Shown here: positions 10,617-32,333 of the stretch, piece after piece | Position numbering within the stretch: position 1 is the first letter of the stretch | Layout: every line of letters starts with the position of its first letter | Source: Candidatus Aminicenantes bacterium | GTDB lineage: Bacteria; Acidobacteriota; Aminicenantia; Aminicenantales; Aminicenantaceae | Direction: 5' to 3' | Assembly: GCA_011049545.1 (NCBI GenBank) | Contig: DRHQ01000083.1 | Location: 29,766 to 93,765, forward strand | DNA: 64,000 nucleotides | The notes under the pieces: generated by a model | What the model was told of the DNA's origin: nothing | The model's input: the letters and a program-made list of their open reading frames with translations, nothing else | Databases searched by the model: none | Program-made: the position numbers and the translations under genes

Positions 10617-10672
10617 AGCCATCTTAATGGGCACAACCCTCAATATTGATCTTTTTTTGTAGGCGTTTGATT

Positions 10673-17307: not shown

Positions 17308-17818
17308 TGTTCCTCCTTTTGTTTAGTTTTGCAAAAAGAGCAGAAATATGGACATGTCTGATTTTCCATTCGTCCTCTTCATAATTAAAGACCCATGTCC
17401 AAGCGTCTTTTCCCTCGAATGTATTATCTGATTTATCTTTCATCATATAGCTGTAAAATCCATAAAGAACTGCCACATCAGCCGAGAGTACATCCACTTC
17501 AATCTCACCCATTGTATATTTAAGCTCTACCATATTAGCCATCATCTCATGTGCAATCTTTTTGTGTTCCTCCCAAGAATAATCTATCATGCCATGTTCG
17601 ATGGTTATTGTGTTATCACTGAAATAGCTGAACATTCTATCTAGTTCATTATTGCTTCCCGCCTCGAAGGCTTCTTTGGTGATTTGTTTGATAGTCTCCG
17701 TTATTTCAGCTTTCTGTGATTCATCGAGTGTTACTTTCCTTTGTTGACAGCTGATACTAAAACATAGCAAGAAACAAAGAGAAATTACTAAGGATAATGG
17801 AGTGAGTAGTTTTTTCAT
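17300..17818 (-). CDS. Lipoprotein with NTF2-like/SnoaL-like domain (paralogue of 16798..17307)
   Basis: Start placed at the ATG (MKKLLTPL…) preceded by AAGGAGGG. The ORF-track TTG start at 17863 lacks an RBS. Lipobox FSISCQQ. Confidence 0.5.
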   Translation of the reverse strand: MKKLLTPLSLVISLCFLLCFSISCQQRKVTLDESQKAEITETIKQITKEAFEAGSNNELDRMFSYFSDNTITIEHGMIDYSWEEHKKIAHEMMANMVELKYTMGEIEVDVLSADVAVLYGFYSYMMKDKSDNTFEGKDAWTWVFNYEEDEWKIRHVHISALFAKLNKRRNNE

Positions 17819-18035
17819 TTTCCCTCCTTTTTTCTTATGAGAATGCCTATTTGCTTGTAACAATTAAACCTAACTTTACAATCCGTGTCAACTTGATTGT
17901 TGGTCATTCCATCTTATCTTATAATTGCCATTACGAGGAGGGAAGCGACGCGGCAATCTCAACCTGATTTTTTGAATTGACATCGCAAAATTTTTATCTG
18001 GTTATCAAATTAAAATAAGGATAAAATAATATCAG

Positions 18036-19757
18036 ATGAAAAAAATTATCGTTCTTCCGCCTGAAATATCCCTGAAAATTGCTGCGGGTGAAGTCATCGA
18101 GAGACCTTTTTCAGTTGTCAAGGAATTGGTGGAGAACTCTTTGGATGCCAGTGCTTCGGAGATAAAAGTCGAGCTTCTTTCCGGAGGAAAGAAACTGGTA
18201 AGAGTTACGGACAATGGCCATGGAATGAGACGAGAAGATGCCAATCTGTGTTTTGAAAGGCATTCAACCAGCAAGATTCGAAGTGTCGAAGACCTCAGCC
18301 TGATTGCAACCCTGGGTTTTAGAGGAGAGGCTCTGCCCAGTATCTCTGCTGTCTCCAGGGTTGTTTTAAAGACATCCGATGGCAAAGAGGAGAAAGGTAC
18401 TCTGATTGAAAAAGAAGGAGAGAAGATAATCCAAACTTCAGACGTCGCTTTTCCGCTGGGAACATCCGTTGAAGTCAGAGACCTATTCTTTAATTTACCT
18501 GCGAGGGAAAAATTTCTCCGCTCAGATAGATCTGAACTTAACCTGATTGTGAAATTCATGACTTTTGCTTCCATAGCTTACCCGGAAGTGAGGTTTTCTT
18601 TAATCCACGGTAAAAGGCAGGTCTTTGATTATCCACCTGTAAGCAGTCTCAAGGAAAGGATTTTTCAGGTTTTCGGGAAATCCATGTTAGAACGACTCCT
18701 GGAGATTGATTACAAGGAGGATGATAAGCAGCTTTATGGATATGCTTCTCTTCCGCCAGCAGGGCATCGAGATAGAACCCTCCAGCTCTTTTATGTGAAC
18801 AAAAGACCGGTAAGAGATCGAACTCTCCTGGCTGCCCTGAATCAAGCTTACAGAGGCTTTTTAGAAAAAGATAGATATGCCGAAGCTTTCCTTTTTCTCT
18901 CCTATCCCTATACTGAGGTCGACATAAATGTCCATCCAGCCAAAGCAGAAGTCAGGTTTAAAGATTCCCGCCCTGTTTTTCAGCTTGTATACCGGAGTAT
19001 CGAGCAGGCCATTCTCAGGGAGAAAGGAGTAAAAAAGATCTATCCTACTAAGGAAGAAGAAATGGGTTCCAGGATGGAGGAAAAAAGAAGCTTCGGCATA
19101 GGAGAGGAAAGAGATGGGCCTGCTGTTATGAGGATCGGGGAACGGAAGCGAGAATGGAAAGATTTGTTCACTCCCCTTGCCAAGCAGGAAGAGACATCCC
19201 CGCACCTCCTGGGGCAGTATCTGGATATATATATAGTTGCCTGTTCTGAAGAGGGCATACTTATCGTCGATCAGCACAATGCCCATGAGAGGATTCTTTT
19301 TGAAAAATATGAAGAAATAGATAAAGAAAAGAAATGGCCTCAAAAATTGGCTCTTCTTCCTATTCTTTTCGAGCTCTCTCCATCCCAGCTTTTGAGTTTT
19401 GAAAATAATCAAGCCATGCTGGAGGAGGCAGGATTCAGGGTGGAGGCCATGGGAGGGCAGAGCTTTGCCTTAAAAGAGTACCCTGATATATTTAAAGAGG
19501 AGGAAGCAAAGGATATATTTATCTCTCTTCTTGAAGAAAAGAAGGGAGAGCAAATCGAGGATAAAAAAAAGAGACTGTTAGCCACACTGGCCTGTAAGAC
19601 TGCTATAAAAGCAGGGCAGATTTTATCTTACGAAAAGATGAATTACCTGGTGGAAGAGCTTTTCAAAACATCAAATTCATCCCTCTGCCCTCATGGAAGG
19701 CCCATTATCGTCAAGATAGATAAGAAGGAAATAGAGCGGGGTTTAAAAAGGAGCTGA
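18036..19757 (+). CDS. mutL: DNA mismatch repair protein MutL
   Basis: 573-aa ORF. N-terminal GHKL ATPase motifs (…AAGEVIERPFSVVKELVENSLDA…) and a C-terminal dimerisation domain. Confidence 0.9.
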   Translation: MKKIIVLPPEISLKIAAGEVIERPFSVVKELVENSLDASASEIKVELLSGGKKLVRVTDNGHGMRREDANLCFERHSTSKIRSVEDLSLIATLGFRGEALPSISAVSRVVLKTSDGKEEKGTLIEKEGEKIIQTSDVAFPLGTSVEVRDLFFNLPAREKFLRSDRSELNLIVKFMTFASIAYPEVRFSLIHGKRQVFDYPPVSSLKERIFQVFGKSMLERLLEIDYKEDDKQLYGYASLPPAGHRDRTLQLFYVNKRPVRDRTLLAALNQAYRGFLEKDRYAEAFLFLSYPYTEVDINVHPAKAEVRFKDSRPVFQLVYRSIEQAILREKGVKKIYPTKEEEMGSRMEEKRSFGIGEERDGPAVMRIGERKREWKDLFTPLAKQEETSPHLLGQYLDIYIVACSEEGILIVDQHNAHERILFEKYEEIDKEKKWPQKLALLPILFELSPSQLLSFENNQAMLEEAGFRVEAMGGQSFALKEYPDIFKEEEAKDIFISLLEEKKGEQIEDKKKRLLATLACKTAIKAGQILSYEKMNYLVEELFKTSNSSLCPHGRPIIVKIDKKEIERGLKRS

Positions 19758-19759
19758 AA

Positions 19760-19788
19760 TTGACAACTTTTCCCTGTTTTGCTAAGAT
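19760..19788 (+). promoter_or_regulatory. Candidate sigma70 promoter for the tRNA-Pro/tRNA-Arg pair
   Basis: TTGACA(19760-19765)-N17-TAAGAT(19783-19788), about 80 bp upstream of tRNA-Pro. Confidence 0.4.
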
Positions 19789-19867
19789 TAACGGGGCCAA
19801 AAGCCAGGGCAAGAACGGGGACTGTTCCCTTTATCTCGCTTGGAATACACGCTCGTCTTACAAGTTT

Positions 19868-19942
19868 CGGGGAGTAGCGTAGCCTGGTTAGCGCGCCTGC
19901 TTTGGGAGCAGGAGGTCGTCGGTTCGAATCCGATCTCCCCGA
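19868..19942 (+). tRNA. tRNA-Pro (anticodon TGG)
   Basis: Manual fold: acceptor cggggag/ctccccg, D arm, anticodon stem cctgc/gcagg with loop ttTGGga, T arm gtcgg-ttcgaat-ccgat, discriminator A. No encoded CCA. Confidence 0.85.
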
Positions 19943-20011
19943 TTAAAACTTAAGACGGATAAAGGAACAATCGGATATAGAAGCCGATTGAGATAGAAAA
20001 ATATCAAGGAT

Positions 20012-20089
20012 GCGCCTGTAGCTCAGTCAGGATAGAGCAGCTGCCTTCTAAGCAGCGGGTCGGAGGTTCGAGTCCTTCCAGGCGTGCCA
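20012..20089 (+). tRNA. tRNA-Arg (anticodon TCT)
   Basis: Acceptor gcgcctg/caggcgt (G1·U72), anticodon stem gctgc/gcagc with loop ctTCTaa, T arm ggagg-ttcgagt-ccttc, encoded CCA. Confidence 0.8.
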
Positions 20090-20235
20090 CCCTTCCTCCT
20101 TATTTACCAATAGCTTTCCTTGGATTTTGATTTCATAGAGCCTATACTATTTTTAGTTTTTTTGACACAAAAATGTCAAAGGAGTGACAAATTCGACATC
20201 CCACTGTTACACGGGCTGATGTCTGGTTTTTTCTC

Positions 20236-20300
20236 ATTGACTTGAAACTTTTTCTTATGATATAAGTCAAAGAGTCACAGCTTAGGGACATCGTGAGCAA
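20236..20300 (+). promoter_or_regulatory. Repeated promoter + conserved leader module, copy 1 (TTGACt-N17-TGATATAAG-TCAAAGAGTCACAGCTTAGGGA)
   Basis: One of three near-identical modules (with 21192-21247 and 30104-30200), each ~120-150 bp after a tRNA or tRNA fragment and before an ORF. A possible 22-codon GTG-initiated leader ORF lies at 20293-20361. Confidence 0.45.
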
Positions 20301-20381
20301 CGCAAGAGGGAAGAACTTTTGCCTACATCATAAAGGCAGAATTCTATCTCCATATCTATAAACCAAAAAAGGAGGTATTTT

Positions 20382-20912
20382 ATGAAGAACAGAATTATCG
20401 TAGGAACAATTCTTTTTGCTTTTCTTCTTTCTGGAACTGTTTTTGCTCAAGAGAAAAAACAGAAAGTTGAAGCACCTCAATTAACAGTAGAGCAGAAATG
20501 GAAACGTGCTATGTCTAATCTGAATGCGATATTCATTGCAAGTATTGCCTATGCCAAATCTCAGGGAAAATCGCCATCACACTATGGTAAGTATATGGGA
20601 GAATTATTTGCGACAAGCTGGGAAGGAGTTAAAGGCGTAACAGATTTCATAGAGGCAATGCATTGGAATTGGCAAATGTGGGAAGATTTCCAGATTGAAG
20701 TCTTGGAAGAGTCTGAGAACTTTTATAAAGCGAAGATTAAAGGGATAGGCGAAAAATACATCACAGAAGGGTCGGAAGCAGGAGTCACATTAAACGAATA
20801 TTATGATTGCTGGGAACAACTTATGATGCCGATAACGAATTATTTAGGTCTGGAATACAAACAAAAAATAGAAGGAGATTGGATAGTATTTACAGTTAAA
20901 GAAAAGAAATAG
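20382..20912 (+). CDS. Hypothetical secreted protein (signal peptide)
   Basis: 176-aa ORF with a good RBS (AAAGGAGG). N-terminal signal MKNRIIVGTILFAFLLSGTVFAQ. No recognisable domain. Confidence 0.5.
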   Translation: MKNRIIVGTILFAFLLSGTVFAQEKKQKVEAPQLTVEQKWKRAMSNLNAIFIASIAYAKSQGKSPSHYGKYMGELFATSWEGVKGVTDFIEAMHWNWQMWEDFQIEVLEESENFYKAKIKGIGEKYITEGSEAGVTLNEYYDCWEQLMMPITNYLGLEYKQKIEGDWIVFTVKEKK

Positions 20913-21022
20913 ACACTCATAGCATACAAATCCAAGCCTTCCTGAGGTTGAGGATGCCAGGAAGAGGCTGGTTCCGTCCAGATCTTCTTATAAGCCCAAA
21001 GAAAAATAGGCTACGAAGGCCG

Positions 21023-21084
21023 AGCGGGTGGCTGTTAACCACTAGGTTGTAGGTTCGAGTCCTACCCGAGGAGCCATCTTTTTA
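21023..21084 (+). repeat. 3' fragment of a tRNA-Asn(GTT)-like gene (anticodon arm + T arm + acceptor 3' + CCA), direct repeat copy 1
   Basis: ggtgg-ctGTTaa-ccact…gtagg-ttcgagt-cctac-ccgagga-g-cca. No matching 5' acceptor or D arm upstream. ~95% identical to 29921-29982. Confidence 0.75.
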
Positions 21085-21191
21085 TGGGGTAAAAAGCTCT
21101 CGACTATTTAAGCAACCTTATCCGTAGTTAGGCAAGTTTAGGCATTTATTGACACACCACTGACACACAGGAATAGGTGTGTTTTTCTTGT

Positions 21192-21247
21192 TTGAATCTA
21201 ATTTTCCATTGTGAAATAAGTCAAAGAGTCACGGCTAGGGGAGCATA
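21192..21247 (+). promoter_or_regulatory. Repeated promoter + leader module, copy 2
   Basis: ttgaat-N16-gtgaaataag-tcaaagagtcacggctagggga, then the ATG of the 21248 ORF. Confidence 0.45.
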
Positions 21248-21691
21248 ATGAACCCAGCAAAGGAAGGAATCATGTTTGCCGCCCTTTACACTAAAAAGTG
21301 TATAAAGGAACAGGCACAAGATGAGCTTCAATATTTTCGTATGTATCCCACTGAAAGAGATGAAAGTGGGCGCACCATGTTGCTACCATTTGCATTCAAA
21401 GAGAGAGACTATTTCAATTGTCCAGAAAGAATGAAAGACGATGAGGTAAAAGTCGTAAAGGAGTATTCACCCCATCATGTATACACTTCTGACCCAAGAG
21501 AGTCATATCTAATTGACGAATGTAAATGGATTCCAACAGCAGACCAACTTAGGAAAGGTCTAGAAAGGATAGGTTATTCTATTGGAGATACTTCATATAT
21601 GAATGAAGAGCAAATACTTGATTTAATAATGAGAGAACGAAAAAAGATGAGGTGGAGTAGAGAAAAAGAAAACTGGGTAAAGGTTTTGTAG
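21248..21691 (+). CDS. Hypothetical protein
   Basis: 147-aa ORF with RBS AGGGGA. No recognisable domain. Confidence 0.5.
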   Translation: MNPAKEGIMFAALYTKKCIKEQAQDELQYFRMYPTERDESGRTMLLPFAFKERDYFNCPERMKDDEVKVVKEYSPHHVYTSDPRESYLIDECKWIPTADQLRKGLERIGYSIGDTSYMNEEQILDLIMRERKKMRWSREKENWVKVL

Positions 21692-21839
21692 AAGAGACTA
21701 TAATATACACCTACAATCGTAAACCCGTCGCTCCAGCGCACAATCTCACGACAAAACGACCTTCCTTGACTTCACGGATACCTGAGCATAAAATCATTTC
21801 GAGATTGTCAGTAATCAAAAGACTTAATGAGAAGGGGAG

Positions 21840-22280
21840 GTGAAAAAAATGGAACAACCCCTTTTAATATTACTTGGAGCATTATTAGCAATAGGAGGAG
21901 GTTTTATTAGCCAACACAACCAAAGCCGTCTTGATCAAAGGAGACAAGATAGAGAGTTTTTCCATCAGGCAGAAGAGATTTTAATTGAGATGCAGCCTTA
22001 TTTGGAAGAGGTCATGACTCCTCCTAGTAAAGAATTACATGAGTTAAGTAAAAAACTTCTTTATGCTGCTATGAGAATCAAAACAAAAGGCTATCTTGAC
22101 TTAGCATTAAAATTAGTTGAATTTGCTAGAATGGATGCCAAAAAGACTAAGGATGAAGCAATTAGTCTCATCCAGGAGGTTGCTGCGACAAGTAAAAGTG
22201 CGCTCGATATGCATCACAGAAAACGAAATGAAATTGTCAAAAAAGCCTGGGAAGAGCTAAAAAAGATTGGAAGGGGATAG
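21840..22280 (+). CDS. Hypothetical protein with N-terminal transmembrane helix
   Basis: 146-aa ORF with RBS GGGGAGG. TM segment LLILLGALLAIGGGFI, then a helical/charged region. Confidence 0.5.
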   Translation: MKKMEQPLLILLGALLAIGGGFISQHNQSRLDQRRQDREFFHQAEEILIEMQPYLEEVMTPPSKELHELSKKLLYAAMRIKTKGYLDLALKLVEFARMDAKKTKDEAISLIQEVAATSKSALDMHHRKRNEIVKKAWEELKKIGRG

Positions 22281-22474
22281 CGAAGAGAAGCATTGATTAA
22301 TACACTCCTAAAATTTAATAAATCTTTTGATCTCGATTTTTACTCCCTGCCTTTCAATACTCCCAATCTCGACTGGCGATCTGTGTCGCACGATGGGTAT
22401 TATGTAAACTTGCTACCTTGTAAAATGACCTTGAGAGCGGGAGAATAGATTATTGAGGGAAAAGGAGGGGGACA

Positions 22475-22620
22475 TGAAAAAACTTTGCATGATTATTCCT
22501 CTGATCCTGGTTCTATGTTTTATCGTCAGCTGTCAAAATCAGGAAGCAATGGCAGAGCTTGAAGAGATGAAGGCCCAGGCAGAGGTTGAGGAGCAGAATA
22601 AGGAAGTAATCGAAATTTAG
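22475..22620 (+). CDS. Possible small lipoprotein (48 aa), not in the ORF track
   Basis: ATG after AAGGAGGGGGA. MKKLCMIIPLILVLCFIVSCQNQ… has signal and lipobox features. Short and unverified. Confidence 0.3.
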
Positions 22621-22626
22621 TAAGAA

Positions 22627-24114
22627 ATGAGCGATATATATAGAAAGTTAGACAAAGTTTTCTTAGAACTAACTCAAGCCCTTTCTATCTATAGTAAATC
22701 AAAATTCTTGCAAGATTATTTTATAACTTCCTACATTTCATTTATATATGCAAATATTATTAAAAATTTTTTTATTAATTTGACAAGAGAGACTATAAAA
22801 AAATTAAATTTACCTAAAAGCCAAATAGGTGAAATCAAAAAAAAATATAAAGAAATACAGAAAGAAATAAATTTAGCAATATCTATTTCATTGAAGGGTA
22901 AAAAAATAGATGAAAAATATTACAGTAAATTTAAATCTAATATTAAAAAAGATTTCCCTGAATTTATAAAAATATTATCTACAGTTGAAAAAGAGATTAA
23001 AATTGCGAGGCTAAAGAAATTTATTAACAAAAAGAAAATAGAGATAAAAAGGGTAGGTCAAGATGAAGCAGATCTTCATAAAGATTTATTAACAAAAGCA
23101 TTAGAAGCGTATATTCAGGAAAAAAAAGAAATTCCGAGTATGATAAAAGTAAAAAACCTTATTAATACTATTGGAAGAGAAATCTTACCAAAATTTTCAG
23201 AAGCTTTAACGGCAGATCTTATTAAGGATAGACACGCGTTTTTATCAGATCAAAGAAAACTCCAAAAGGGATTTGAGACTCGATTATATGAAAGGTGGAA
23301 GGATCCTTTAGACCTCTTTGAATGCTTAATTCAAATTTCTTTAGAATCTGGAGAAAAACGTAAAAAAAAGTTAAATAATAAGAAAAATAATAAAAATAAT
23401 TCTAAATATGACGCGCTAATTAAACTTCATGCCAGAGCCTTACATATTTCTAACGAAATAGCTATTTTGCTGAAATCGGGTTATGCAGATGGTGCAAACG
23501 CCAGATGGAGGAGCCTCCATGAATTAGCTGTTATTTCTTTTTTCCTATGTGAAAATAATAATGATGCTTCAAAAAGATATTTAGAGCATAGCGTTATAAG
23601 AGCACTAAAAGAGGCAAAGGATTATAGAACCTATTATAAAAAATTGGGATATCCTCCTATAAAAAGAAAAGAGCTTCTGATGTTAGAAAAGGAAGCAGAG
23701 AGGCTATGCAAAAAGTATAGTGATAGATTTCAAGATGATTATGGTTGGATTCCCAGCTCCATATTAAAAGAAAGAAATTTTAAAGCTCTAGCACAATCTG
23801 TTAAGCTTGATAAATTACGTCCATACTATAACCTTGCTTGCGATTCTTCCCATGGAGGTTCAAAGGGGTTTTATAGACTTGGTTTAATGGATGATTCTCA
23901 AGACAAAATATTTCTTGTTGGTTCAAGTAATTATGGACTTGCTAGTCCTCTCCAAAATTCTGCTATTTCTTTATTACACGTTTCCTCTTGCTTATTAACT
24001 TTGGAGCCTGACTTTGAAAGCATTATACAAATATATGTGATGGGTAATTTTATGAACGAAATTTGTGATAAAGCAGTTGAAGTTCAAAGTAAGATTGAAA
24101 AGGAAACAGATTAA
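22627..24114 (+). CDS. Large Lys/Ile-rich hypothetical protein with a C-terminal HEPN-like R-x4-H motif (Abi-like candidate)
   Basis: 495-aa ORF in very AT-rich DNA. The C-terminal region has …GANARWRSLHELAV… (R-x4-H) inside a predicted helical domain. No other recognisable motif. Confidence 0.55.
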   Translation: MSDIYRKLDKVFLELTQALSIYSKSKFLQDYFITSYISFIYANIIKNFFINLTRETIKKLNLPKSQIGEIKKKYKEIQKEINLAISISLKGKKIDEKYYSKFKSNIKKDFPEFIKILSTVEKEIKIARLKKFINKKKIEIKRVGQDEADLHKDLLTKALEAYIQEKKEIPSMIKVKNLINTIGREILPKFSEALTADLIKDRHAFLSDQRKLQKGFETRLYERWKDPLDLFECLIQISLESGEKRKKKLNNKKNNKNNSKYDALIKLHARALHISNEIAILLKSGYADGANARWRSLHELAVISFFLCENNNDASKRYLEHSVIRALKEAKDYRTYYKKLGYPPIKRKELLMLEKEAERLCKKYSDRFQDDYGWIPSSILKERNFKALAQSVKLDKLRPYYNLACDSSHGGSKGFYRLGLMDDSQDKIFLVGSSNYGLASPLQNSAISLLHVSSCLLTLEPDFESIIQIYVMGNFMNEICDKAVEVQSKIEKETD

Positions 24115-24192
24115 TAGTAATTCTGCTTCTTTAATAATCATTATGTTAACTCGCTCCGTATGAAATGACCTTTATATATTTTAGGAGTAGAC

Positions 24193-24645
24193 ATGAGCAC
24201 AACTCAATTAATATTTCCTTGGTACCATAGGATAAGACATGTAGATTTAAAGAAAATAAAACACCCTACATCTTTGTTGGATTTTCAAGAATTATCATAT
24301 ACAGAAAGATATGATTCTCGATATTTTAAATATCTTAACTTGTCAAATAAGAAATTGTCTACAAACTGGCTAGACTCGTGGGAATCAATATTTGTAGTCG
24401 GTCCATTTATAGAAAGAAAACAGAAATATAATAAAATTCCGTTCATTGTCTTTATAACAGAGGGAAGCATTTATAGCCAATTGGTGGTTTTAAGCAGAAG
24501 ACTTGAGCTGCCTTATTATGAGTTCGGGATAATGCCAGATTTATATATATATCCTTCTAAGCTTCACAAATATTTCACTATGAAAAAGGATAAGCTTTGG
24601 CTTAGAACTGAAGCCGTTTCTATTAGACTTAAGAAAGGAGGATGA
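24193..24645 (+). CDS. Hypothetical protein, translationally coupled upstream partner of the HEPN-like ORF
   Basis: 150-aa ORF whose stop is 1 nt before the next ATG. No canonical nucleotidyltransferase G[SG]…D.D motif found. Confidence 0.5.
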   Translation: MSTTQLIFPWYHRIRHVDLKKIKHPTSLLDFQELSYTERYDSRYFKYLNLSNKKLSTNWLDSWESIFVVGPFIERKQKYNKIPFIVFITEGSIYSQLVVLSRRLELPYYEFGIMPDLYIYPSKLHKYFTMKKDKLWLRTEAVSIRLKKGG

Positions 24646-24646
24646 A

Positions 24647-25042
24647 ATGCCCAATCCAAACCAGTACAAAAAAATATCAGATAGATATCTAAATGCTTCG
24701 GATTTATTGGTTGATGATGTTCATGAGGCAGCAGGATTTTCTTTATATCATGCCTTTGAATCCATGGGAGCTGCATGGATAAGAACGAATGCTAGAGTTG
24801 TGCCTCATAGACATGAAAGCAAAATTAATATGTTCGTATCTTTAACGAGAGAAACTGGGCACAGAACTGGTATTGGGCTGGTAGGTATTTTATTAAACTC
24901 ATTGAGAAATAAGATGCTTTATCCAATTCCTGAAATTCCGTCAGGTTTTTCGATACCTCACATTAAATTCTCAGTCTCAGAAATAAAAAATTTGAGCCGA
25001 AGGGTAAAAGGTATTTTAAATATAATAAGACCTCTAATCTAA
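24647..25042 (+). CDS. HEPN-domain-like small protein
   Basis: 131-aa ORF. ASDLLVDDVHEAAGFSLYHAFESMGAAWIRTNARVVPHRHESKINMF follows the helical HEPN pattern (…A.DL…A..y.a.E…KA…p..H…L.). Confidence 0.45.
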   Translation: MPNPNQYKKISDRYLNASDLLVDDVHEAAGFSLYHAFESMGAAWIRTNARVVPHRHESKINMFVSLTRETGHRTGIGLVGILLNSLRNKMLYPIPEIPSGFSIPHIKFSVSEIKNLSRRVKGILNIIRPLI

Positions 25043-25059
25043 TTACTCAAGAATATTGT

Positions 25060-25560
25060 ATGGATAAAGATAGATTTCTTCGTGTTTTCAAGGAATCATT
25101 GGAAGTAATAACAGAAAAACGCTTCTTCTCATCTGAGCTAGGTTATCAAGGACAACTTGTATCTGAGCTAAATAAAAGATTAATAATGGAGTTGGTTTTT
25201 TCAAACAGGGCAGTCGTTGAGCAAGAATACCAAAAAAGATTGAAGGACCATGGTATCAGAATAAGGCCGGACATAATTATTCATGTCCCATACTCAGAAG
25301 GAATTCATTCCTCAAGGAAAGAAGATAATTACGTGGTTATCCAGCTAAAAAAGAACTCATCAAAAAAAGATGCTTTAGATGATTTAAAAAAAATTGACTT
25401 ATTATTTCAGAATTTAGATTATCCACTTGGTGTTTTTCTGAATATAGGTTCTGAGAAAAATTTTTATAGTTATTATTTAGGAGAATATAGAGATCGAATT
25501 CATTGTTTTGCAGTTCTATTGTCAGCAGAAGACAAGGTAATCATACACAAATCACCATAA
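25060..25560 (+). CDS. Hypothetical protein, possible PD-(D/E)xK nuclease-like fold
   Basis: 166-aa ORF 17 bp after the HEPN-like gene. Contains …E…RPDIIIH…VVIQLKK…, a weak E/PD/QxK arrangement. Confidence 0.45.
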   Translation: MDKDRFLRVFKESLEVITEKRFFSSELGYQGQLVSELNKRLIMELVFSNRAVVEQEYQKRLKDHGIRIRPDIIIHVPYSEGIHSSRKEDNYVVIQLKKNSSKKDALDDLKKIDLLFQNLDYPLGVFLNIGSEKNFYSYYLGEYRDRIHCFAVLLSAEDKVIIHKSP

Positions 25561-25647
25561 AACTTATTTGTCTAAGAGCTAATACCTCTAATGCTTTGCT
25601 ACCTTCTAAGATAAAGAGCCTAAAATAAAGATGGAAGTTTAGACAAG

Positions 25648-25700
25648 TGGAAGTCAAAAACCCTAAAGCCCTAGCTTCCCCGATTTCTGAAAAAGACAGT
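25648..25700 (+). repeat. Island hairpin motif family P5, copy A (GGAAG[CT]CAAA-N-CCTAAAGCC-YTRGCTTCCC-N-GAT[TT]GAAAAAG)
   Basis: Imperfect inverted repeat GGAAGCCAA/TTGGCTTCC followed by GATTGAAAAAG. Four copies, each 60-130 bp upstream of an ORF (25780, 28174, 31890, 32334). Confidence 0.7.
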
Positions 25701-25779
25701 AGAGCGAATTTAAAGCTAATTTCTCTTTCCCGGGAAGATTGTGCCGCACAATCGATATTATGTAAACTTATAAAAACCT

Positions 25780-26688
25780 ATGTCGAATCATAAAAAACAA
25801 CATTCTGTTCCCAAATGTTATCTCAGGGAATTTATTGACCCAGAAACTCCAGGTGGATATGAGCCTTTTATTTGGATTTTTGATAAAAACGGCAAGAACA
25901 AAAGAAAGAAGGCACCTAAAAATGTATTAACAAGTAACAATCTATACACTATTGAAGTCGAAGGGAAGGCTAGGGATTATTCTATTGAAAAAAGCCTCTC
26001 TTCTATTGAGAACGATTTTGCAATTTTGTTCAGACAGAAAATCAAAAATCTATTGCCATTATCAGAGGAGGAGCACATATCTTTGTGCATTTTTATAGCC
26101 ACTATGCTCCAGAGAACTGTTAGCCAGAAAGCTAATCTAGAACATTTCCTTGATGAGCTAATTTCACATGGCGAAAAATTAGCAGCACATCATGGAATTA
26201 AGTCGAGGACTGTTGAGAGCCTAAAAAACTACAAAAGAGATGCTCATAAACTCAATATTTTGAAGATGTTTCCAGAAGTGACTCAAATTTTATTAAATAT
26301 GAGCTTGGCATTCGTAATAGTGGGGAGAAGCAAATCTCGGTTTATTACCTCCGATGACCCATGCACCCTTTTTAATCCAAAATTAAGAGAGCAACGCCTT
26401 ATGGGTCCAGGATTGGGTCAGAAGGAAGTTGAATTGACTATTCCATTATCTCCTGAGATTGCACTCTGTTTGAGCTGGAGTAATTTTCGGGGATTTATTG
26501 AAATTGGAAAACGACAGATTGAAGAATTAAATAGAACAACGCGAGCCCATTGCTATGAACTCTTTATTTCCTCTAGTTCCCATAAAAAATTTAGATGGTT
26601 TTTAAAATACCCTTTGAGCCTAATTTTTGTCATGAAAGTTATCAGACAGAAGTTTAATTATAGAATTCATAGAAATTTTCACTCATGA
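25780..26688 (+). CDS. DUF4238-like protein
   Basis: 302-aa ORF whose N-terminus (HSVPKCYLREF) fits, to my recollection, the family signature H-x-V/I-P-x-x-YL-R/K-x-F. Preceded by a repeated tattatgtaaactt -10-like element. Confidence 0.55.
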   Translation: MSNHKKQHSVPKCYLREFIDPETPGGYEPFIWIFDKNGKNKRKKAPKNVLTSNNLYTIEVEGKARDYSIEKSLSSIENDFAILFRQKIKNLLPLSEEEHISLCIFIATMLQRTVSQKANLEHFLDELISHGEKLAAHHGIKSRTVESLKNYKRDAHKLNILKMFPEVTQILLNMSLAFVIVGRSKSRFITSDDPCTLFNPKLREQRLMGPGLGQKEVELTIPLSPEIALCLSWSNFRGFIEIGKRQIEELNRTTRAHCYELFISSSSHKKFRWFLKYPLSLIFVMKVIRQKFNYRIHRNFHS

Positions 26689-26697
26689 ATTCAAGTT

Positions 26698-27564
26698 ATG
26701 GCAAAAGAAGATAGATATTCACTCGCGTTATATTTAGCCTCTAAAGGCCAACTGGACAAAGCCTCATTCCTTCTGTGGAAGATAGTTGAGAAAACAAATA
26801 GTGCAGAGTTAATGCTGAACTCCATATTGGCTTTGGTTACTATGTTGGGGCGAAAAGAAAACAACGAAAAAATTATAAATCTATGTGATAAGGGAATTGA
26901 ACTCTCTTATAGACTCAATAATGAGAATGCCAAAGCATTTCTAATGGCGACTAAAGCTCTAAGCATAATAATTGAAGTCGAATTCAATCTACACAAGAAG
27001 AAGAATCTTGTTTTAGCACCGGGGTGGAAGGAATTTGCCTTGGAATCCATAAAGGAGGAGTTCACAGTCCTTACAAGAAAGATTGAGCAAAACCGGAGTG
27101 AATCACAACAATTGATAACTGAATCCTTCAAAGGAATCAGTTCAAGTCAAATTAGTGAAACACTAGCAGACGTTTTAATGATAAAAGGTGAATATCATTT
27201 TGATGAATACCTGAATTACAAAATAGAAAATATCAAAACTACAAAATTTAGACTGTTTCTAAAGAACGTCAGTAACATTGACTCTTTTCTTTATAATCAG
27301 AGTAGCCAAAAAACTACAAAAAGAATTTTAAAGGACTCAAAGAAGTGCATCATTGATGCAGCACAGATTTATAAGAATCTAGGAGATGAAATAAATCAAG
27401 CAAATGCTTATTTAAACTTAGCAAATCAAGCGATTTCGATAAATCGTAAAAAGGAAGCGAGGAAATATCTAAAAAAAGCAATTACTGAAGTTCAAAACAA
27501 TAAAAATTTGGAAATATTGAACAGAATTAGAAATTTGGAAGAACGATTAATGAAACATGATTAG
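26698..27564 (+). CDS. Hypothetical alpha-helical (TPR-like) protein, probably co-transcribed with the DUF4238-like gene
   Basis: 288-aa ORF 9 bp downstream of the previous stop. Repetitive helical hairpin pattern (…AYLNLANQAISINRKKEARKYLKKA…). Confidence 0.5.
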   Translation: MAKEDRYSLALYLASKGQLDKASFLLWKIVEKTNSAELMLNSILALVTMLGRKENNEKIINLCDKGIELSYRLNNENAKAFLMATKALSIIIEVEFNLHKKKNLVLAPGWKEFALESIKEEFTVLTRKIEQNRSESQQLITESFKGISSSQISETLADVLMIKGEYHFDEYLNYKIENIKTTKFRLFLKNVSNIDSFLYNQSSQKTTKRILKDSKKCIIDAAQIYKNLGDEINQANAYLNLANQAISINRKKEARKYLKKAITEVQNNKNLEILNRIRNLEERLMKHD

Positions 27565-28065
27565 TAGTATTGGAAATAGCACTTAGGAATATAACTCCCC
27601 GTTGGGGAATGTCATTTACAATGATTTAAGCGAAATGGAGACTCAACCATTTTGAAGTAGGTCCCCAATAAAGAAGCTTCAGTCCTTCGGTGTTTGGATG
27701 TTCAGATTGAGCTAAACATAGTAAAGAACACAAACTACTATACAAAGGTCACATATTAAAAGAAAAGCAATACTTCAGTTAGATCCATGCCCCATAATCA
27801 TATTCATCCCTGGATACTCCATTCTAATCTTCAGTTCTGAATATCCCTTCAACTTGTGATATAATATCCTCAAAAGTCCTTCATTCGGTTTGAAGGCGGC
27901 CTGAATAAGGCTCACTTCCGGTGAAGCCTTGGTGGCACATTTAAATAGCTGGTCCATTGTCCTCCAGGAACTTCTTACTTAATTCGTTTTTTTTGTACTA
28001 CAATTATGGCATTTTTTCAACATGGGGGATTTCCAAATTCTATACTAAAAAAATTTTAGGTAGAG

Positions 28066-28115
28066 CTTAAGCCAAATACCCTAAAGCCCTGGCTTCCCTA
28101 GATTGAAAAAGATAT
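28066..28115 (+). repeat. Island hairpin motif family P5, copy B
   Basis: aagccaaataccctaaagccctggcttccctagattgaaaaag. Confidence 0.7.
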
Positions 28116-28173
28116 CATTAAGGGTGGAAATTACCCTCAAGAACATAGACTGATTTTATAGGGGGACATTCTC

Positions 28174-29187
28174 GTGTTACTTTTTGATGACGGTTTATTT
28201 TCTCTTGATAGTCCGAAAGAGAGTTTTGCGGATGAAAGCTGGTCTGGAAATCTTTGGTATCGGACTAATGTAATTGCTCCTATAGAATCCCCTAAGGATT
28301 TAAGCTGGCTTTTTGAAATTGAACAAGAAGCAAGAAAGCTAGGTTATCTTGGAGAAGTAAAATCATATTTTGCTTATCAAATTATTATCCATTTAGATGT
28401 CAAAAGAAGAAATAGAATTTGGAGATTAATTCAAGATGTTCCTATTCTTATAATTGACCCAAAATATTATTTAAGAGAATTCGGAATAAAAATTATAAAT
28501 CAATACAGTTATTCATTTGAAATATATGGAGTAAAATTCCAAATAAATCGGTCAGACCAGATGTTTAAAAAATATGAAGAACTTCTTCAAGAATTATTAT
28601 CCCAGAGAGTACTCATTGATTCTCTTTTACCTGATTTAGAAAATGCCATAAGAAATATTTCAGCTCGCTATGATGTGTTTCCAGGCATATATGACTTCGA
28701 ACCGAAAAGAATATTGAAACAATTAAATTTCAAGAAACCAAAAAAGCAAATAATAAATGTTGTCAAACTCTCATCAAGGCTTCATAGCGCTTTTATTGAA
28801 CTGGGTGATAGAGATTCAATAAATTCTGCAATGGACGGATTATCATATTTTAAAATGGATTTACTGTTCCCATTATCTCACTTTTATAGGGATTTATTGA
28901 TTAAATCTATATCAAGAAACTGCTATTTTGATGAAGGTGACACGAAGTCCATTGAATTTATTAGAGGATTAATCAATAAAGTTAAGACTGGTTTAACTCA
29001 TGATATTTTTGGAAAATATTCGGCCATTCCAGAAGCAAAAATTGAAGAAATCAAATCTGAAGAAGATATAAGAATGCGCGCTTCAGATGTAATATCTGGG
29101 ATTGCCAGAATGATTTATGATTCTGAGGGGATAAGAGGTTTAAAGAACAAATTTTCTTATATATTTTTTAATGGTCGCAGAATATAG
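28174..29187 (+). CDS. Hypothetical protein
   Basis: 337-aa ORF with GTG start after AGGGGGAC. AT-rich, no recognisable domain. Confidence 0.5.
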   Translation: MLLFDDGLFSLDSPKESFADESWSGNLWYRTNVIAPIESPKDLSWLFEIEQEARKLGYLGEVKSYFAYQIIIHLDVKRRNRIWRLIQDVPILIIDPKYYLREFGIKIINQYSYSFEIYGVKFQINRSDQMFKKYEELLQELLSQRVLIDSLLPDLENAIRNISARYDVFPGIYDFEPKRILKQLNFKKPKKQIINVVKLSSRLHSAFIELGDRDSINSAMDGLSYFKMDLLFPLSHFYRDLLIKSISRNCYFDEGDTKSIEFIRGLINKVKTGLTHDIFGKYSAIPEAKIEEIKSEEDIRMRASDVISGIARMIYDSEGIRGLKNKFSYIFFNGRRI

Positions 29188-29484
29188 AATAAAGAAAATA
29201 TTTGGAAGGTATACACTTTACCCCAAGTATTTTGTTTGCCTTCTTTCCAGTTAATTGCACTCGTTCACTTTCTCATTCTATGTTTCTCGTTTGGGCAATA
29301 AAGCCAATCCTCAAGCCTTGAACATCAATCCACCCTGTCCCCAGGCGAAGGATTGCGTCGCATATCTATTATTATGTATACTACTATAACTCACATAATA
29401 TCAGTAAGTTGCGATGATTTAGATTTGAAATATTATCCCATTTTGGGCCAAAAAAAGGGGGTAAATTCCCGTTTTTCAAATAGG

Positions 29485-29575
29485 GGTGGCGTCTGACTGC
29501 GAATCAGAAGGTCGTCGGTTCGAATTCGATCTCCCCGATTAAAGCTTAAGACGGATAAAGGAACAATCGGATATA
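29485..29575 (+). repeat. tRNA 3'-fragment direct repeat (copy of tRNA-Pro T arm, acceptor 3' end and 37 bp of downstream flank)
   Basis: 29510-29575 matches 19914-19979 at 64/66 positions (…ggtcgtcggttcgaat[ct]cgatctccccgattaaa[ag]cttaagacggataaaggaacaatcggatata). It is preceded by an unrelated anticodon-arm-like hairpin and has no 5' tRNA half. Confidence 0.8.
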
Positions 29576-29659
29576 AAAATAAGTTCTTCCTGTCTTCTCA
29601 CCTTCAGCCAGATTTAGAGGGGTCTAAATGAATCTGATATTACCAAGCTCTGTAAGCCA

Positions 29660-29860
29660 TTACGGAATTACATCTTTAAACTTCTCTGAAGCAGGTTCTC
29701 CACCAATTCCCCAGTGTGATTTTTGGATTTCATGAATAATCACTTCTACAGCCTGAGTGGGAATCCCTAAATCTACAAAGACCTTAGTTATATTTTGGAT
29801 TGTGATTTTTGCTTTTTCCTGTCCGAAACCTTCCCAGACATTTACATGGATAACGGGCAT
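29660..29860 (-). CDS. Tautomerase family protein (4-oxalocrotonate tautomerase-like)
   Basis: 66-aa ORF starting MPVIHVNVWEG… with catalytic Pro1 after Met, at the typical tautomerase-family length. Confidence 0.6.
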   Translation of the reverse strand: MPVIHVNVWEGFGQEKAKITIQNITKVFVDLGIPTQAVEVIIHEIQKSHWGIGGEPASEKFKDVIP

Positions 29861-29920
29861 TTATTACCTCCAAAGTTTTGTTGATAATAATACTCTACTA
29901 TCTGGATTCTGAAAAATCAA

Positions 29921-29982
29921 AGCGGGTGGCTGTTAACCACTAGGTTGTAGGTTCGAGTCCTGCCCGAGGAGCCATCTTTTTA
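29921..29982 (+). repeat. 3' fragment of a tRNA-Asn(GTT)-like gene, direct repeat copy 2
   Basis: Same as 21023-21084 with one T-stem substitution (cctgc vs cctac). No 5' half present. Confidence 0.75.
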
Positions 29983-30103
29983 GGGGCCAGAGACAACCTC
30001 TCATTTACTCACCATTAGGCAATAGCGAGCAATTGTAGTCATTTTGTGTCATGCGGACGTCACCGGTCTATCACATGGCAGAAAACAGGTCATTATTACG
30101 TGG

Positions 30104-30200
30104 GCTTGACATTTGTCTTCCAACAATTGACCTCATTTTTTCCCTGTGATATAAGCCATAGAGAGTGTTAGCTTCAGCTAGTTGGTGGGATCGTTAATTC
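30104..30200 (+). promoter_or_regulatory. Repeated promoter + leader module, copy 3
   Basis: ttgacc-N17-tgatataag-ccatagagagtgttagcttcagctag, upstream of the 30276 ORF. Confidence 0.4.
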
Positions 30201-30275
30201 TGCTCCTGCTATTTTCATTAGGCTGATTTCACGAAAAATTAAATCTAGCTCAAAGATTAGGAGGGATAACCAGTA

Positions 30276-31760
30276 ATGAAGAAAAACTGGATGGCAGAAC
30301 TCACCTATCATTATGAAAAAACTCGGCGCCGATATCCTCAAGATCGGCTGATGATTCTTTTTGATATCGACGGTACAATTCTAGATATGCGCTATATGGT
30401 ATTTCATGTCCTGAAAGCCTTTGATAAAAAGCATGACACCCATTTTTTTCGAAAGCTTAATGTCTCTGATATTACTGTACACGAGAATCAAGTGGATAGT
30501 TTTTTAGCAGAGTTACGAATTCCATCAGAGGAACAGAGAGAGATCATAAAGTGGTATAATCAGCATCGCTGGTCTTCGGAGTATATCCTTCAGTCCCACC
30601 ATCCATTTTCTGGAGTGCTTGAGGTTATTCGATGGTTCCAACTCCAGCCAAATACCTTTGTTGGCTTGAATACTGGCCGGCCTGAATCAATTCTAAGCGA
30701 CACCTTGAGATCCCTGAATAAATTAGGTAAAGAGTATAAAGTTCAATTTAGTGATGAACTGTTGCGTATGAATCCTGGGGGCTGGGAACAAGAAGTAGAA
30801 AATTCGAAGGTTGCTGGAGTGCGCTATTTTCAAAAAAAAGGGTATCACATCTTCGCCTTTGTAGACAACGAGCCCAATAATTTGAAGGTGGTTTCCAATA
30901 TTGATCCAGATCAAGAAATTCTCCTACTTCATGCGAATACTATCTTCGAATCTAAAAGGACCAGATTACCTTCCCGTACGGTCAAAGGTAAAGCATACGA
31001 CATAACTGAACTAATTCCCGAGAAAGAACTGCCCCAGCATATTCAATTTGTTTGGCATGGTATAAACGACGAAGTGAACTTACGTCAATTTCTAGCTTCT
31101 GAGATTACTTGGGGGGAATGTGATGTTCGTATGGATCCCATAGCCAATGAGTTGATTCTTCGTCACGATTCCTTTGTAGAACTCCCTCTGGATGTAGACG
31201 AAGATTGGTTTAGTTTGGATCGTCTGCTCCATCGCTTGTTAAAAACAGGCAAGTCAATTAAGCTCGATTTAAAGTCAGGCGGTATTTTGGTAGATAAGGC
31301 TTTGAAATTCATTGAATCTTCCAGCTTTGATGAATCTCGCCTGTGGTTTAACGGCAATGTGGAAAGACTGCAAGAGCAAGGGTTCAGAAAATTAGCCAGT
31401 GCCCACCCCGATGCTATTTTGCAATGCCCTGTTGATTTTTTAGCTCCTCTGATTAGCAGTGCCCCAGAAAAAGCTCAGGAAATACTCGATATGTTTATAA
31501 AATGGGGTATCAACCGCTTTTCCATTAATTGGAAAACTCAGAACATGCGCAATTTCTTTGATCAGATGGATAAATGGGGATTTGAAGTCAATATTTACAA
31601 CGTTCCTGATTTAGAGTCATTCCTGGAGATGGTGCTTCTCATGCCGCGATCTATCACGTCCGATTTCAATTTTCCTAAATGGCATTATTATGGCAGAGGC
31701 TCAGGAGAAGATGGTAGCCATTATGAATATTCTATACGAAAGACGAAAGGAAGAAAGTAG
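30276..31760 (+). CDS. Fusion protein: N-terminal HAD-superfamily phosphatase domain + C-terminal GDPD/PLC-like phosphodiesterase (TIM-barrel) domain
   Basis: 494-aa ORF. Carries HAD motif I ILFDIDGTILD. The C-terminal half (FVWHGINDEVN…ECDVRMDPIANELILRHDSF) parallels the GDPD pattern H-R-G…E-N…E-x-D-V…H-D. Confidence 0.55.
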   Translation: MKKNWMAELTYHYEKTRRRYPQDRLMILFDIDGTILDMRYMVFHVLKAFDKKHDTHFFRKLNVSDITVHENQVDSFLAELRIPSEEQREIIKWYNQHRWSSEYILQSHHPFSGVLEVIRWFQLQPNTFVGLNTGRPESILSDTLRSLNKLGKEYKVQFSDELLRMNPGGWEQEVENSKVAGVRYFQKKGYHIFAFVDNEPNNLKVVSNIDPDQEILLLHANTIFESKRTRLPSRTVKGKAYDITELIPEKELPQHIQFVWHGINDEVNLRQFLASEITWGECDVRMDPIANELILRHDSFVELPLDVDEDWFSLDRLLHRLLKTGKSIKLDLKSGGILVDKALKFIESSSFDESRLWFNGNVERLQEQGFRKLASAHPDAILQCPVDFLAPLISSAPEKAQEILDMFIKWGINRFSINWKTQNMRNFFDQMDKWGFEVNIYNVPDLESFLEMVLLMPRSITSDFNFPKWHYYGRGSGEDGSHYEYSIRKTKGRK

Positions 31761-31802
31761 GTGCAACTAGAAGTTTACACACCATGAAAAATTATCCAGA
31801 GC

Positions 31803-31850
31803 AGGAAGCCAAAGACATTAAAGCCTTGGCTTCCCTGGATTGAAAAAGGA
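31803..31850 (+). repeat. Island hairpin motif family P5, copy C
   Basis: ggaagccaaagacattaaagccttggcttccctggattgaaaaag (best palindrome of the family). Confidence 0.7.
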
Positions 31851-31889
31851 CGCTGATCGAGTTAGAATTCTTATAAGGGAGTAAAAAAT

Positions 31890-32243
31890 ATGAAAGTTTT
31901 ACTCATTATTAACGATGCACCGTATGGGACAGAAAAAGCCTACAATGCTATGCGGCTAGCGATGATGATTCAAAAAGAACACGCTGATGCAGAGGTTCGT
32001 ATTTTCCTGCTGGCAGATGCAGTAACATGTGCGGTCCCAAAACAGTCAACTCCAGAGGGATACTACAATCTAGAACGGATGTTTAAATCGGTCATAAAAA
32101 AGGGTGGAGTAGTGAAGGCTTGTGGTACGTGTGCCAACGCTCGCGGAATCAAAGGAATAAACCTGATAGATGGTATTGAAATAAGCACAATGAGCCAATT
32201 GAGCCAATGGACAGTAAGTTCAGACAAAGTTTTAACCTTCTGA
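31890..32243 (+). CDS. DsrE/DsrF-like (TusD-like sulfur-relay fold) family protein
   Basis: 117-aa ORF: MKVLLIINDAPYGTEKAYNAMRLA…KACGTCANARGI… — length and motifs recalled as DsrE/DsrF-family-like. Confidence 0.55.
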   Translation: MKVLLIINDAPYGTEKAYNAMRLAMMIQKEHADAEVRIFLLADAVTCAVPKQSTPEGYYNLERMFKSVIKKGGVVKACGTCANARGIKGINLIDGIEISTMSQLSQWTVSSDKVLTF

Positions 32244-32296
32244 AGCTACAATATTAAAGTTATATAATCCTGAATTTTCATATCTTTTGAGGCGAG

Positions 32297-32330: not shown

Positions 32331-32333
32331 ATT

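Follow-up and report, generated by a model that had tools for sequence, protein, structure and literature searches.

What does a repeated tRNA end mark when the DNA between its two copies carries no integrase? The question is raised by a 64,000-nt stretch of DNA (the window: contig DRHQ01000083.1, positions 29,766–93,765, of assembly GCA_011049545.1) from a Candidatus Aminicenantes bacterium of a marine-sediment lineage, in which the 3' end of a tRNA-Pro gene recurs with some of its flank about 9.6 kb downstream. A preliminary description of the window had taken the two copies for the ends of a single element integrated into the 3' end of tRNA-Pro and since immobilized. We describe here the anatomy of the locus, its breakpoints among strains, the family of elements to which its units belong and a relative that carries an integrase. 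With a probability of roughly 0.62, we read the locus as a tRNA-anchored, strain-variable array of integrase-less and partly defense-like cassettes, scarred by recombination between attachment (att) sites derived from tRNAs. The tRNA-Pro/tRNA-Arg pair downstream of mutL would anchor this array, which would span ∼13.5 kb (window ∼20104–33584).

Searching the window with the 67-mer that starts at 19913, and allowing at most three mismatches, returned two matches, 19913–19979 (0 mismatches) and 29509–29575 (2 mismatches), both on the + strand, while 100 dinucleotide-preserving shuffles returned none (0/100). The repeat with its two mismatches is therefore real, and weaker similarity (88%) surrounds it, between 19893–19982 and 29489–29578. 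The left copy comprises the variable loop, T arm and acceptor end of tRNA-Pro followed by 37 bp of the spacer that leads to tRNA-Arg, and is the native gene with its spacer; the right copy comprises a tRNA-Pro-derived T arm and acceptor end and 37 bp of the same spacer. ARAGORN calls only two tRNAs in the window, both intact and on the + strand: tRNA-Pro(TGG) at 19867–19943 (66.8 bits with the Rfam tRNA model) and tRNA-Arg(TCT) at 20012–20089, 69 bp past tRNA-Pro as in all relatives.

These relatives came from several searches. A scan with MutL gave three contigs of Candidatus Aminicenantes metagenome-assembled genomes (MAGs; L001–L003, MutL identity 87%–93%), and exact look-up of a tautomerase protein encoded to the right of the repeat, identical in at least 22 contigs, gave closer strains (L006, L008, L010, L011, L013 and L014 among them). 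A metagenome scan with the promoter and 5' untranslated region (UTR) pattern of a leader described below gave 20 sediment contigs (L031–L050), of which L037 is a further version of the window's hotspot. Exact look-up of MutL added zero contexts, as the other assemblies break directly past mutL.

As in the window, tRNA-Pro adjoins mutL in L001, L002, L003, L006, L008 and L037, and in all seven genomes compared tRNA-Pro, a conserved 69-bp spacer and tRNA-Arg(TCT) follow one another uninterrupted. No retrieved genome has an insertion at tRNA-Pro. By this comparison, the arrangement is ancestral. The tRNA-Arg that had seemed out of place inside the repeat-bounded segment is intact, as described, but there is nothing unusual in its position, since it is the native neighbor of tRNA-Pro. 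A deletion through the 66-bp pair would remove it, so that the pair is unlikely to act as working left and right attachment sites (attL and attR).

That the 66-bp sequence might instead be a widespread dispersed repeat, of the repetitive extragenic palindrome (REP) or miniature inverted-repeat transposable element (MITE) kind and unrelated to tRNA-Pro, is brought to mind by several short dispersed hairpin families in the window. We regard this as extremely improbable: the sequence has only two copies in 64 kb, one of them is the functional tRNA-Pro itself, and the matches in every related locus are either the native tRNA-Pro or the hybrid site beside the tautomerase gene to which we now turn. 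The tRNA origin proposed earlier holds.

The right copy has an Rfam tRNA score of 26.3 bits, below the gathering score of 29, its D arm is absent, and ARAGORN calls no tRNA there. It therefore lacks a normal 5' half, as the preliminary description had stated, and with neither a full cloverleaf nor a score above the thresholds of Rfam or ARAGORN it is not a complete functional tRNA gene. That description had also seen the copy fused to an unrelated hairpin; the fusion stands, but the hairpin is of tRNA origin. The left part, GCGTCTGACTGCGAATCAGA, equals the anticodon arm of genuine tRNA-Arg(ACG) genes, GCGTCTGACT(A/G)CGAATCAG, once a G of the anticodon is changed to A. This arm (29489–29508, + strand) has its anticodon mutated to GCG in the window and reads ACG in L010, L011, L013, L037 and L038. 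Viral contigs scanned with it, for identification of the arm only, returned ordinary tRNA-Arg(ACG) sequences. Immediately to its left lies a conserved element-type arm of ∼160 bp (29333–29488, + strand), shared with L008 (99%) and L037 (89%; the match covers 29353–29488), next to which the cargo differs among strains.

L037 and L038 carry a complete Arg(ACG) 3' fragment running from the 3' strand of the D stem through CCA. In L037 the same ∼160-bp arm lies upstream of this fragment and a leader downstream, and the site is attP-like. In the window, L008, L011 and L013, the Arg(ACG) left half runs into the tRNA-Pro T arm and acceptor end with 37–40 bp of native spacer, after which the tautomerase flank begins. 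In L011 and L013 the T stem has GGGGG as its 5' strand, which is not Pro-type, and the switch between partners falls within GGTTCGAATCC; in the window and L008 this strand is Pro-type, and the identity therefore extends over 66 bp. Where the two spacers disagree (A19950/G29546), all relatives share the base of the right copy, and both that copy and the window's own spacer carry the lineage-specific GGAAC, which argues that the right copy derives from the tRNA-Pro locus of this very lineage. The right copy is a hybrid attachment-type site made of an element arm, an Arg(ACG)-type half core and a tRNA-Pro half core with its native flank. It has counterparts: further chimeras switch at the T loop in L010 (Arg(ACG)/X), L046 (Arg(TCG)/X) and L039 (Asn/Leu-like).

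The strains place their breakpoints at these same features. Similarity of L001–L003 to the window ends just past tRNA-Arg, at 20120–20192, and the left edge of the variable DNA downstream of tRNA-Arg lies at 20104–20387 (breakpoints at 20104, 20120, 20192/3 and 20387), while the right edge falls, according to strain, at 29333, 29489 or 29576–29580. L008, which carries an AIPR gene and ORF236, matches 17805–20193 and 29333–32344 (99%). L006, with two AbiE pairs, SnoaL and other genes, matches up to 20387 and again from 29580, and L014, with a SnoaL-like gene, matches from 29576; both are without the Pro-derived fragment. L011 and L013, with AbiE, match from exactly 29489. L010, with SnoaL, matches the fragment only to 29524, inside the T loop, and continues with a different 3' end, and the blastn similarity of L037 and L038 likewise stops at 29524/5, beyond which both have their own Arg(ACG)-type T arm. 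On these alignments, strain breakpoints lie at both ends of the right copy and in the T loop of the Arg(ACG)-type portion. Between the same flanks, the window carries DUF5677 and DUF4238 genes, whereas L008, L006 and L037 each carry something different. L037, which diverges at 20104, has at ∼2900–10500 of its reverse complement an 8-kb operon encoding RelA_SpoT-like, C5 DNA methylase, PRTase-CE, ORC-CDC6-like and HhH-GPD proteins and one unannotated protein, which looks like a defense system.

The conserved core resumes at ∼33585, where L003 and L006 rejoin the window, with modules rearranged in L006. L003 carries a 4.7-kb island (an esterase and a MacB/FtsX permease, no integrase) bracketed by tRNA-Arg(TCT) 3' repeats at 3043–3082 and 7807–7846 of that contig, and the gene at window 33585 directly follows this island; the ancestral junction thus runs from tRNA-Arg to ∼33585, leaving ∼13.5 kb of the window accessory.

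A single island, integrated into the 3' end of tRNA-Pro with the 66-bp copies as attL and attR and its integrase lost later, fits this picture poorly. The direct repeat does include a tRNA 3' end, the bracketed DNA is in part GC-poor and no integrase was found. Yet tRNA-Arg(TCT) and the full 69-bp spacer follow the left copy as in island-free genomes, when an insertion would have shifted both to beyond attR, on its right; tRNA-Arg(TCT) would be lost on excision through the repeat; and the variable DNA begins past that gene in strain comparisons. The predicted empty site, tRNA-Pro directly joined to 29576 onward, was not seen in any contig retrieved, and with the left and right breakpoints given above the repeat-bounded segment does not come and go as a unit. 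It also contains internal att-like sites (an Asn fragment with a leader) and, beginning within a truncated SnoaL gene, a low-GC block of its own. We therefore hold a single island to be very unlikely: at least three units, together with the separate low-GC block, make up the mosaic of the bracketed 9.6 kb. Of the integration scar first proposed, the att-scar anatomy and the tRNA origin survive, and the bracketed DNA is strain-variable and GC-poor at 22–29 kb; one 9.6-kb element in the 3' end of tRNA-Pro does not survive, given a Pro–Arg pair uninterrupted in 7/7 genomes.

The units of the array have a leader of ∼150–200 bp in common. A hidden Markov model (HMM) finds three copies in the window, all on the + strand and each directly after a tRNA or tRNA fragment. 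The first follows tRNA-Arg (20147–20298; nhmmer E = 2.1e-31) and shows direct repeats, the promoter TTGACTT-N17-ATATAA and the conserved 5' UTR; the second follows the left of two Asn fragments (21104–21247; E = 1e-36), with TGACACA-N4-TGACACA as its block C; the third, of a diverged type, follows the right Asn fragment (30002–30198; E = 8.2e-27). The model found no other copy in the 64-kb window and none in L001–L004, and a role as a general promoter of the host genome is therefore not supported. From its tRNA end outward, the leader consists of a T-run immediately past the tRNA, block B (TATCCRTARTTAGGCAAGTTTAGGCA), block C (two 7–8-bp direct repeats 11 bp apart, then GGGRAGAGGTCT) and an outward promoter, TTGACTT-N17-(G)ATATAAG, with the conserved 5' UTR and a Shine-Dalgarno sequence. 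It contains two sets of direct repeats spaced by about one helical turn.

Leaders occur in the window, L006, L008, L010, L011, L014, L031–L050 and L055, the last a locus in the complete Aminicenantes genome CP070825.1. Most of those in L031–L050 come after a tRNA, whole or in part, in direct orientation from Asn, Arg(TCT), Arg(CCG), Arg(TCG) or Leu(CAA), or inverted from Arg(CCT) and from a fragment of uncertain identity; L031, L040 and L043 have no recognizable tRNA piece upstream. In several contigs a leader is cut off just past block C and the next tRNA fragment follows with a leader of its own, and related arrays with several tRNA fragments are found in L037, L038, L039, L045 and L050. Block C comes in about six types (TGACACA, GTTACAT, GTGACGT/C, GTGACAA, CGTCAC and TGTCCC), which are reassorted against block D/promoter types between copies, making the leaders mosaic. 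A scan of viral contigs with a block-B 17-mer gave matches at chance level, with only a marginal nhmmer match (E = 0.16). Two stray pieces lie at or within ∼20 bp of the breakpoint 20192/20193, which falls inside the leader that follows tRNA-Arg: an inverted tRNA-fMet 5' fragment in L008 (7075–7144) and a fragment resembling a tmRNA end in L002 (5759–5819).

A second repeat pair, interleaved with the Pro pair, consists of tRNA-Asn(GTT) 3' fragments at 21023–21088 and 29921–29986 (97% identical), each with 54 nt of the tRNA's 3' portion plus ∼12 nt. The left site (20965–21088, + strand) joins an arm-like stretch (20965–21022), the fragment proper (21023–21076) and a T-run; it has no 5' half (a partial Rfam match of 29.5 bits), and its arm recurs in L042, L044 and L045. 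The right fragment, also on the + strand, is preceded by ctgaaaaatcaa, which resembles the integrase-proximal arm gatgaaatttttcaa of loci L051–L054. We considered it as a decayed full tRNA-Asn gene and rejected this, because its would-be 5' half, although conserved among strains, matches the integrase-proximal arm of L051 and L053 and not a tRNA. By its likeness to that arm, the window's right Asn site is an integrase-side att remnant that has lost its integrase.

Integrase-bearing relatives came to light among the contigs that carry the leader. Pfam searches of 54 open reading frames (ORFs) on these contigs found many SnoaL-type proteins, the defense-associated domains C5 methylase, PRTase-CE, ORC-CDC6-like, FRG, SLFN/AlbA_2 and RelA_SpoT, and a single tyrosine integrase, on L036/L047. 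L047 (reverse complement, 1–3786) is a 3.7-kb arrangement of tRNA-Asn, leader, ATC_hydrolase-like gene, SnoaL, ORF166 and integrase (406 aa), followed after ∼60 bp by an identical 62-nt Asn copy and then a different flank, and is apparently an intact relative of the window's units. We rejected the idea that L047 is merely a circular contig, since the flanks past its two Asn copies differ (ACTTTTT and CTAT).

The L047-type integrase has 56 homologs at E ≤ 1e-20; those with a named source belong to Aminicenantes or Desulfaltia MAGs, and most are ∼475 aa long with an N-terminal HTH_17 domain. Among the loci examined around these homologs (L051–L055), an Asn 3' fragment lies ∼75 bp past the integrase in L051–L054, and in L053 and L054 a leader, or the start of one, also follows the integrase and tRNA fragment. 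In L055, what comes after the integrase is an inverted 5' piece of a tRNA, to the eye Glu-like, with a leader beyond it. The protein encoded next to the integrase in L051 resembles a DnaG-type (CHC2) zinc ribbon, a weak match (E = 1.2e-4) below the Pfam threshold.

No such gene is found in the window: Pfam gave no integrase among the ORFs of 16.8–34.9 kb (including all ORFs of at least 60 aa at 20.3–33.3 kb), and the family's integrase, used as a tblastn query over the full 64 kb at E ≤ 10, gave a best E of 5.8 and no remnant, in line with the first description.

How, then, could the array and its hybrid have arisen? Here we infer both the enzyme responsible and the order of events. The units would be what is left of small integrative elements, all of one family and served by tyrosine integrases, each unit consisting of a tRNA-derived attachment core, a leader and cargo driven by the leader's promoter and Shine-Dalgarno sequence. 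All units in the window would have lost their integrase and become cassettes akin to cis-mobilizable elements (CIMEs), with cargo from the DUF4238, DUF5677, SnoaL and ORF147 families. The hybrid probably formed by a crossover in or next to the T-arm sequence GGTTCGAATCC that both partners have in common, one of them a copy of the tRNA-Pro gene and the other an att site of Arg(ACG) type, either already resident or newly arriving. Since the native tRNA-Pro is intact, we favor unequal exchange between sister chromosomes or the re-integration of an excised circle; a later deletion would have removed the rest of the duplicated spacer and the second tRNA-Arg. Hybrids in general would be products of integrase-mediated exchange within the T-loop sequence common to their partners. 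The T loop is reportedly, following Williams in 2002, a classical crossover position of tRNA-targeting tyrosine integrases.

A hybrid could also form without any site-specific recombinase, by RecA-dependent or microhomology-based unequal exchange, template switching or short-patch gene conversion between the T-arm sequences AGGTCG..GGTTCGAAT, near-identical in a resident Arg(ACG) fragment and in the nearby tRNA-Pro gene. The partners have only ∼10–19 bp in common around the T loop, which suffices for microhomology events, the window has no integrase, its Pro-type T-stem 5' strand fits gene conversion, and the mosaic leaders, with blocks C and D reassorted, suggest general recombination among units. 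All four chimeras (Arg(ACG)/Pro, Arg(ACG)/X, Arg(TCG)/X and Asn/Leu-like) nevertheless switch at the T loop, to the left of the hybrid a complete element-type arm is still present, as would be expected of an attR, and integrase-bearing relatives with the same site architecture exist. We accordingly judge a route without recombinase unlikely, while counting it as a serious competitor, and prefer integrase-mediated exchange between tRNA-derived att sites.

Several observations weigh against this preference. The reciprocal product, in which an Arg(ACG) 3' end would follow the 5' half of tRNA-Pro, is absent, and at least one extra step, the deletion, is needed to explain the 37–40 bp of spacer after the hybrid. 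The T-stem 5' strand is Pro-type in the window and GGGGG in L011, which makes the crossover point ambiguous or implies its later alteration by gene conversion. Simple serial integration into one tRNA does not explain mixed tRNA identities within one array, and with no integrase detected in the window the event cannot be assigned to an enzyme. The leader's direct repeats, putatively binding sites for the recombinase or an accessory protein, could equally be operators of a transcription factor, as 7-bp repeats with a 4-bp spacer fit OmpR/PhoB-type sites. The two block C repeats, extracted via hmmalign, agree with each other at 6.11 of 8 positions within a copy and at 4.76 of 8 between copies, a difference reached by 0 of 10,000 permutations, but the copies are related by descent and the test overstates their independence. 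We take this co-variation as supportive rather than conclusive.

Is the cargo that of a defense island? Behind the first leader lies ORF176 (20382–20912, + strand), the cargo of unit 1, which has no Pfam or PADLOC match and an N terminus that looks like a signal peptide by eye only. The second leader precedes a cassette pair, ORF147 (21248–21691, + strand) and ORF146 (21840–22280, + strand), which L040 and L043 carry behind a different leader type (89% over 21192–21795). Next comes the truncated N terminus of a SnoaL-like lipoprotein (22475–22621, + strand; 48 codons), matched by blastn to the starts of SnoaL genes in L031, L036, L039 and L050. Its position directly at the left edge of the low-GC block suggests that this block replaced the remainder of a SnoaL cassette. 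Intact SnoaL and DUF4440 paralogs lie outside the array, at 16798–17863, upstream of mutL (18036–19757, + strand).

The low-GC block (22627–29187) has every gene on the + strand and defense-like cargo; GC content is 0.31–0.35 between 22 and 29 kb and 0.40–0.47 elsewhere. It encodes a DUF5677 protein (22627–24114), three small ORFs (24193–25560), a DUF4238 protein (25780–26688), a TPR protein (26698–27564) and ORF337 (28174–29187), the DUF5677, DUF4238 and TPR assignments coming from Pfam. PADLOC, run on ten ORFs of the island, gave two matches only, both weak or partial: DUF4238-Pers (3.3e-11), to the DUF4238 protein, and PD-Lambda-3_A (7.6e-06). For that reason we speak of a putative defense island. 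To the right of the hybrid site, the 4-oxalocrotonate-tautomerase-like gene (29660–29860, - strand; PF01361, 1.1e-10) belongs to the right-hand backbone; the array units at 30276–33584 then hold a HAD-like gene (30276–31760, + strand), DsrE (31890–32243, + strand), an NYN/LOTUS gene (32476–33261, - strand) and ORF73.

The window contains other repeats. A hairpin family, GGAAGCCAAA..CCCTAAAGCC..TGGCTTCC, occurs 45–90 nt past stop codons, inside and outside the low-GC block, at 25651–25680, 28069–28098, 31806–31835 and 32300–32329 and in L001 at 16012, 16322 and 17548; two of these copies (31806 and 32300) sit at module breakpoints in the comparison with L006. An intergenic motif, CGCATATCTATTATTATGT(W)AAC..., possibly a promoter, lies at 29353–29377, in the arm left of the hybrid site, and at 33390–33466 and 35016–35074, as well as in L001 (17663–17767) and L041 (5336–5430). 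Four tandem units with a period of 87–88 bp occupy 2756–3071 and two more lie 7.5 kb away at 10521–10721, each holding the palindrome GGGCTTGAT-TCA-TCAAGCCC; they could be REP-like or array-like. Another palindrome, AAAATGGGGCC(A/T)GGCCCCATTTT, has nine sites in the window, for example at 8723, 8787, 10492, 10581, 33535, 34016, 35234 and 48955, and is probably a bidirectional terminator or REP-like family. Finally, 34907–34981 and 58543–58617, 23.6 kb apart, match each other as inverted repeats in two neighboring segments (one of 37 nt at 95%, the other of 25 nt at 88%).

Among known systems, the general architecture is closest to several that differ in mechanism. In the tycheposon islands of Prochlorococcus, elements with tyrosine recombinases and cargo are seeded at tRNAs and newcomers push older ones inward (Hackl et al., bioRxiv 10.1101/2020.12.28.424599). 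Compared at the level of general architecture only, both kinds of locus are tRNA-adjacent and strain-variable in content, with scattered partial tRNAs and decayed elements. The Aminicenantes array differs in host, in mixing fragments of several tRNAs, including hybrids and inverted pieces, within one array, in the conserved promoter-bearing leader on every unit, and in its integrases, which are ∼400–500 aa long and mostly HTH_17-fused, unlike the tycheposon kind. CIMEs of the ICESt1 family in Streptococcus thermophilus, related to ICEs (integrative and conjugative elements) and to IMEs (integrative mobilizable elements), have lost their integration genes and kept their att sites, and new elements enter resident att sites to build tandem arrays (PMC5704250). 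The window's units resemble them as cassettes with att-like sites and no integration genes; they differ in showing no conjugation or mobilization genes, in a size of 1–9 kb and in att cores drawn from many tRNAs.

L047 fits the classical scheme of tRNA-targeting tyrosine integrases fully. In classical P4-like islands and prophages, the tRNA is restored at attL and a 3' fragment stays behind at attR; attP is said to hold the 3' portion of the tRNA, with crossover in the T loop or the anticodon loop, in the sublocation classes that Williams reportedly distinguished in 2002. The window's pair departs from classical islands, as no insertion into the tRNA of origin lies between its copies and its right copy combines two tRNAs. 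An integrase with relaxed partners has a precedent in Int-pTN3 of Thermococcus nautili, which also recombines similar sequences other than its cognate ones, two different tRNA genes among them, with chromosomal rearrangement as the outcome (PMC5495485). That enzyme is archaeal and SSV-type and yields large inversions rather than cassette arrays.

The array also recalls integron cassettes: its units are short, mostly on the same strand, strain-variable and without a recombinase of their own, with a recombination site at each boundary. Integron cassettes are mostly promoterless, whereas each unit here has its own promoter; the boundaries are tRNA-derived cores with a leader, and IntI-type integrase, attI and attC are all missing. 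We entertain, as a tentative and on balance doubtful extension, that Aminicenantes possess an integron-like but mechanistically distinct cassette system, in which crossovers within the nearly universal T-loop sequence, made by mostly HTH_17-fused integrases, would capture, shuffle, invert and exchange promoter-bearing units, each delimited by a tRNA-derived core and a leader whose co-varying repeats would be cognate binding sites. Att sites from different tRNAs would then recombine with one another and with bona fide tRNA genes, producing hybrid scars and multi-tRNA arrays, and these arrays would concentrate defense genes and lipoprotein gene families.

Taken alone, a repeat of tRNA origin next to an island is nothing out of the ordinary. 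What appears unusual is the mixture of fragments from many tRNAs in one array, hybrids and inverted pieces included, the conserved leader on every unit with its promoter and co-varying repeats, and how scarce integrases are; elements of this kind did not turn up in a literature search combining Aminicenantes, integrase and tRNA. The locus illustrates that a repeat resembling an att site does not necessarily delimit the element that appears to lie between its copies. A family of mobile elements is documented here in Aminicenantes, a lineage that is uncultivated and abounds in sediments, along with hybrid scars built from two different tRNAs and a conserved leader, bearing a promoter and repeats that resemble binding sites, at every unit. 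If the shuffling is driven by integrases through the common T loop, this would explain how defense and surface-protein genes turn over between near-identical flanks, and the arrays would represent a natural recombination-site system with graded specificity.

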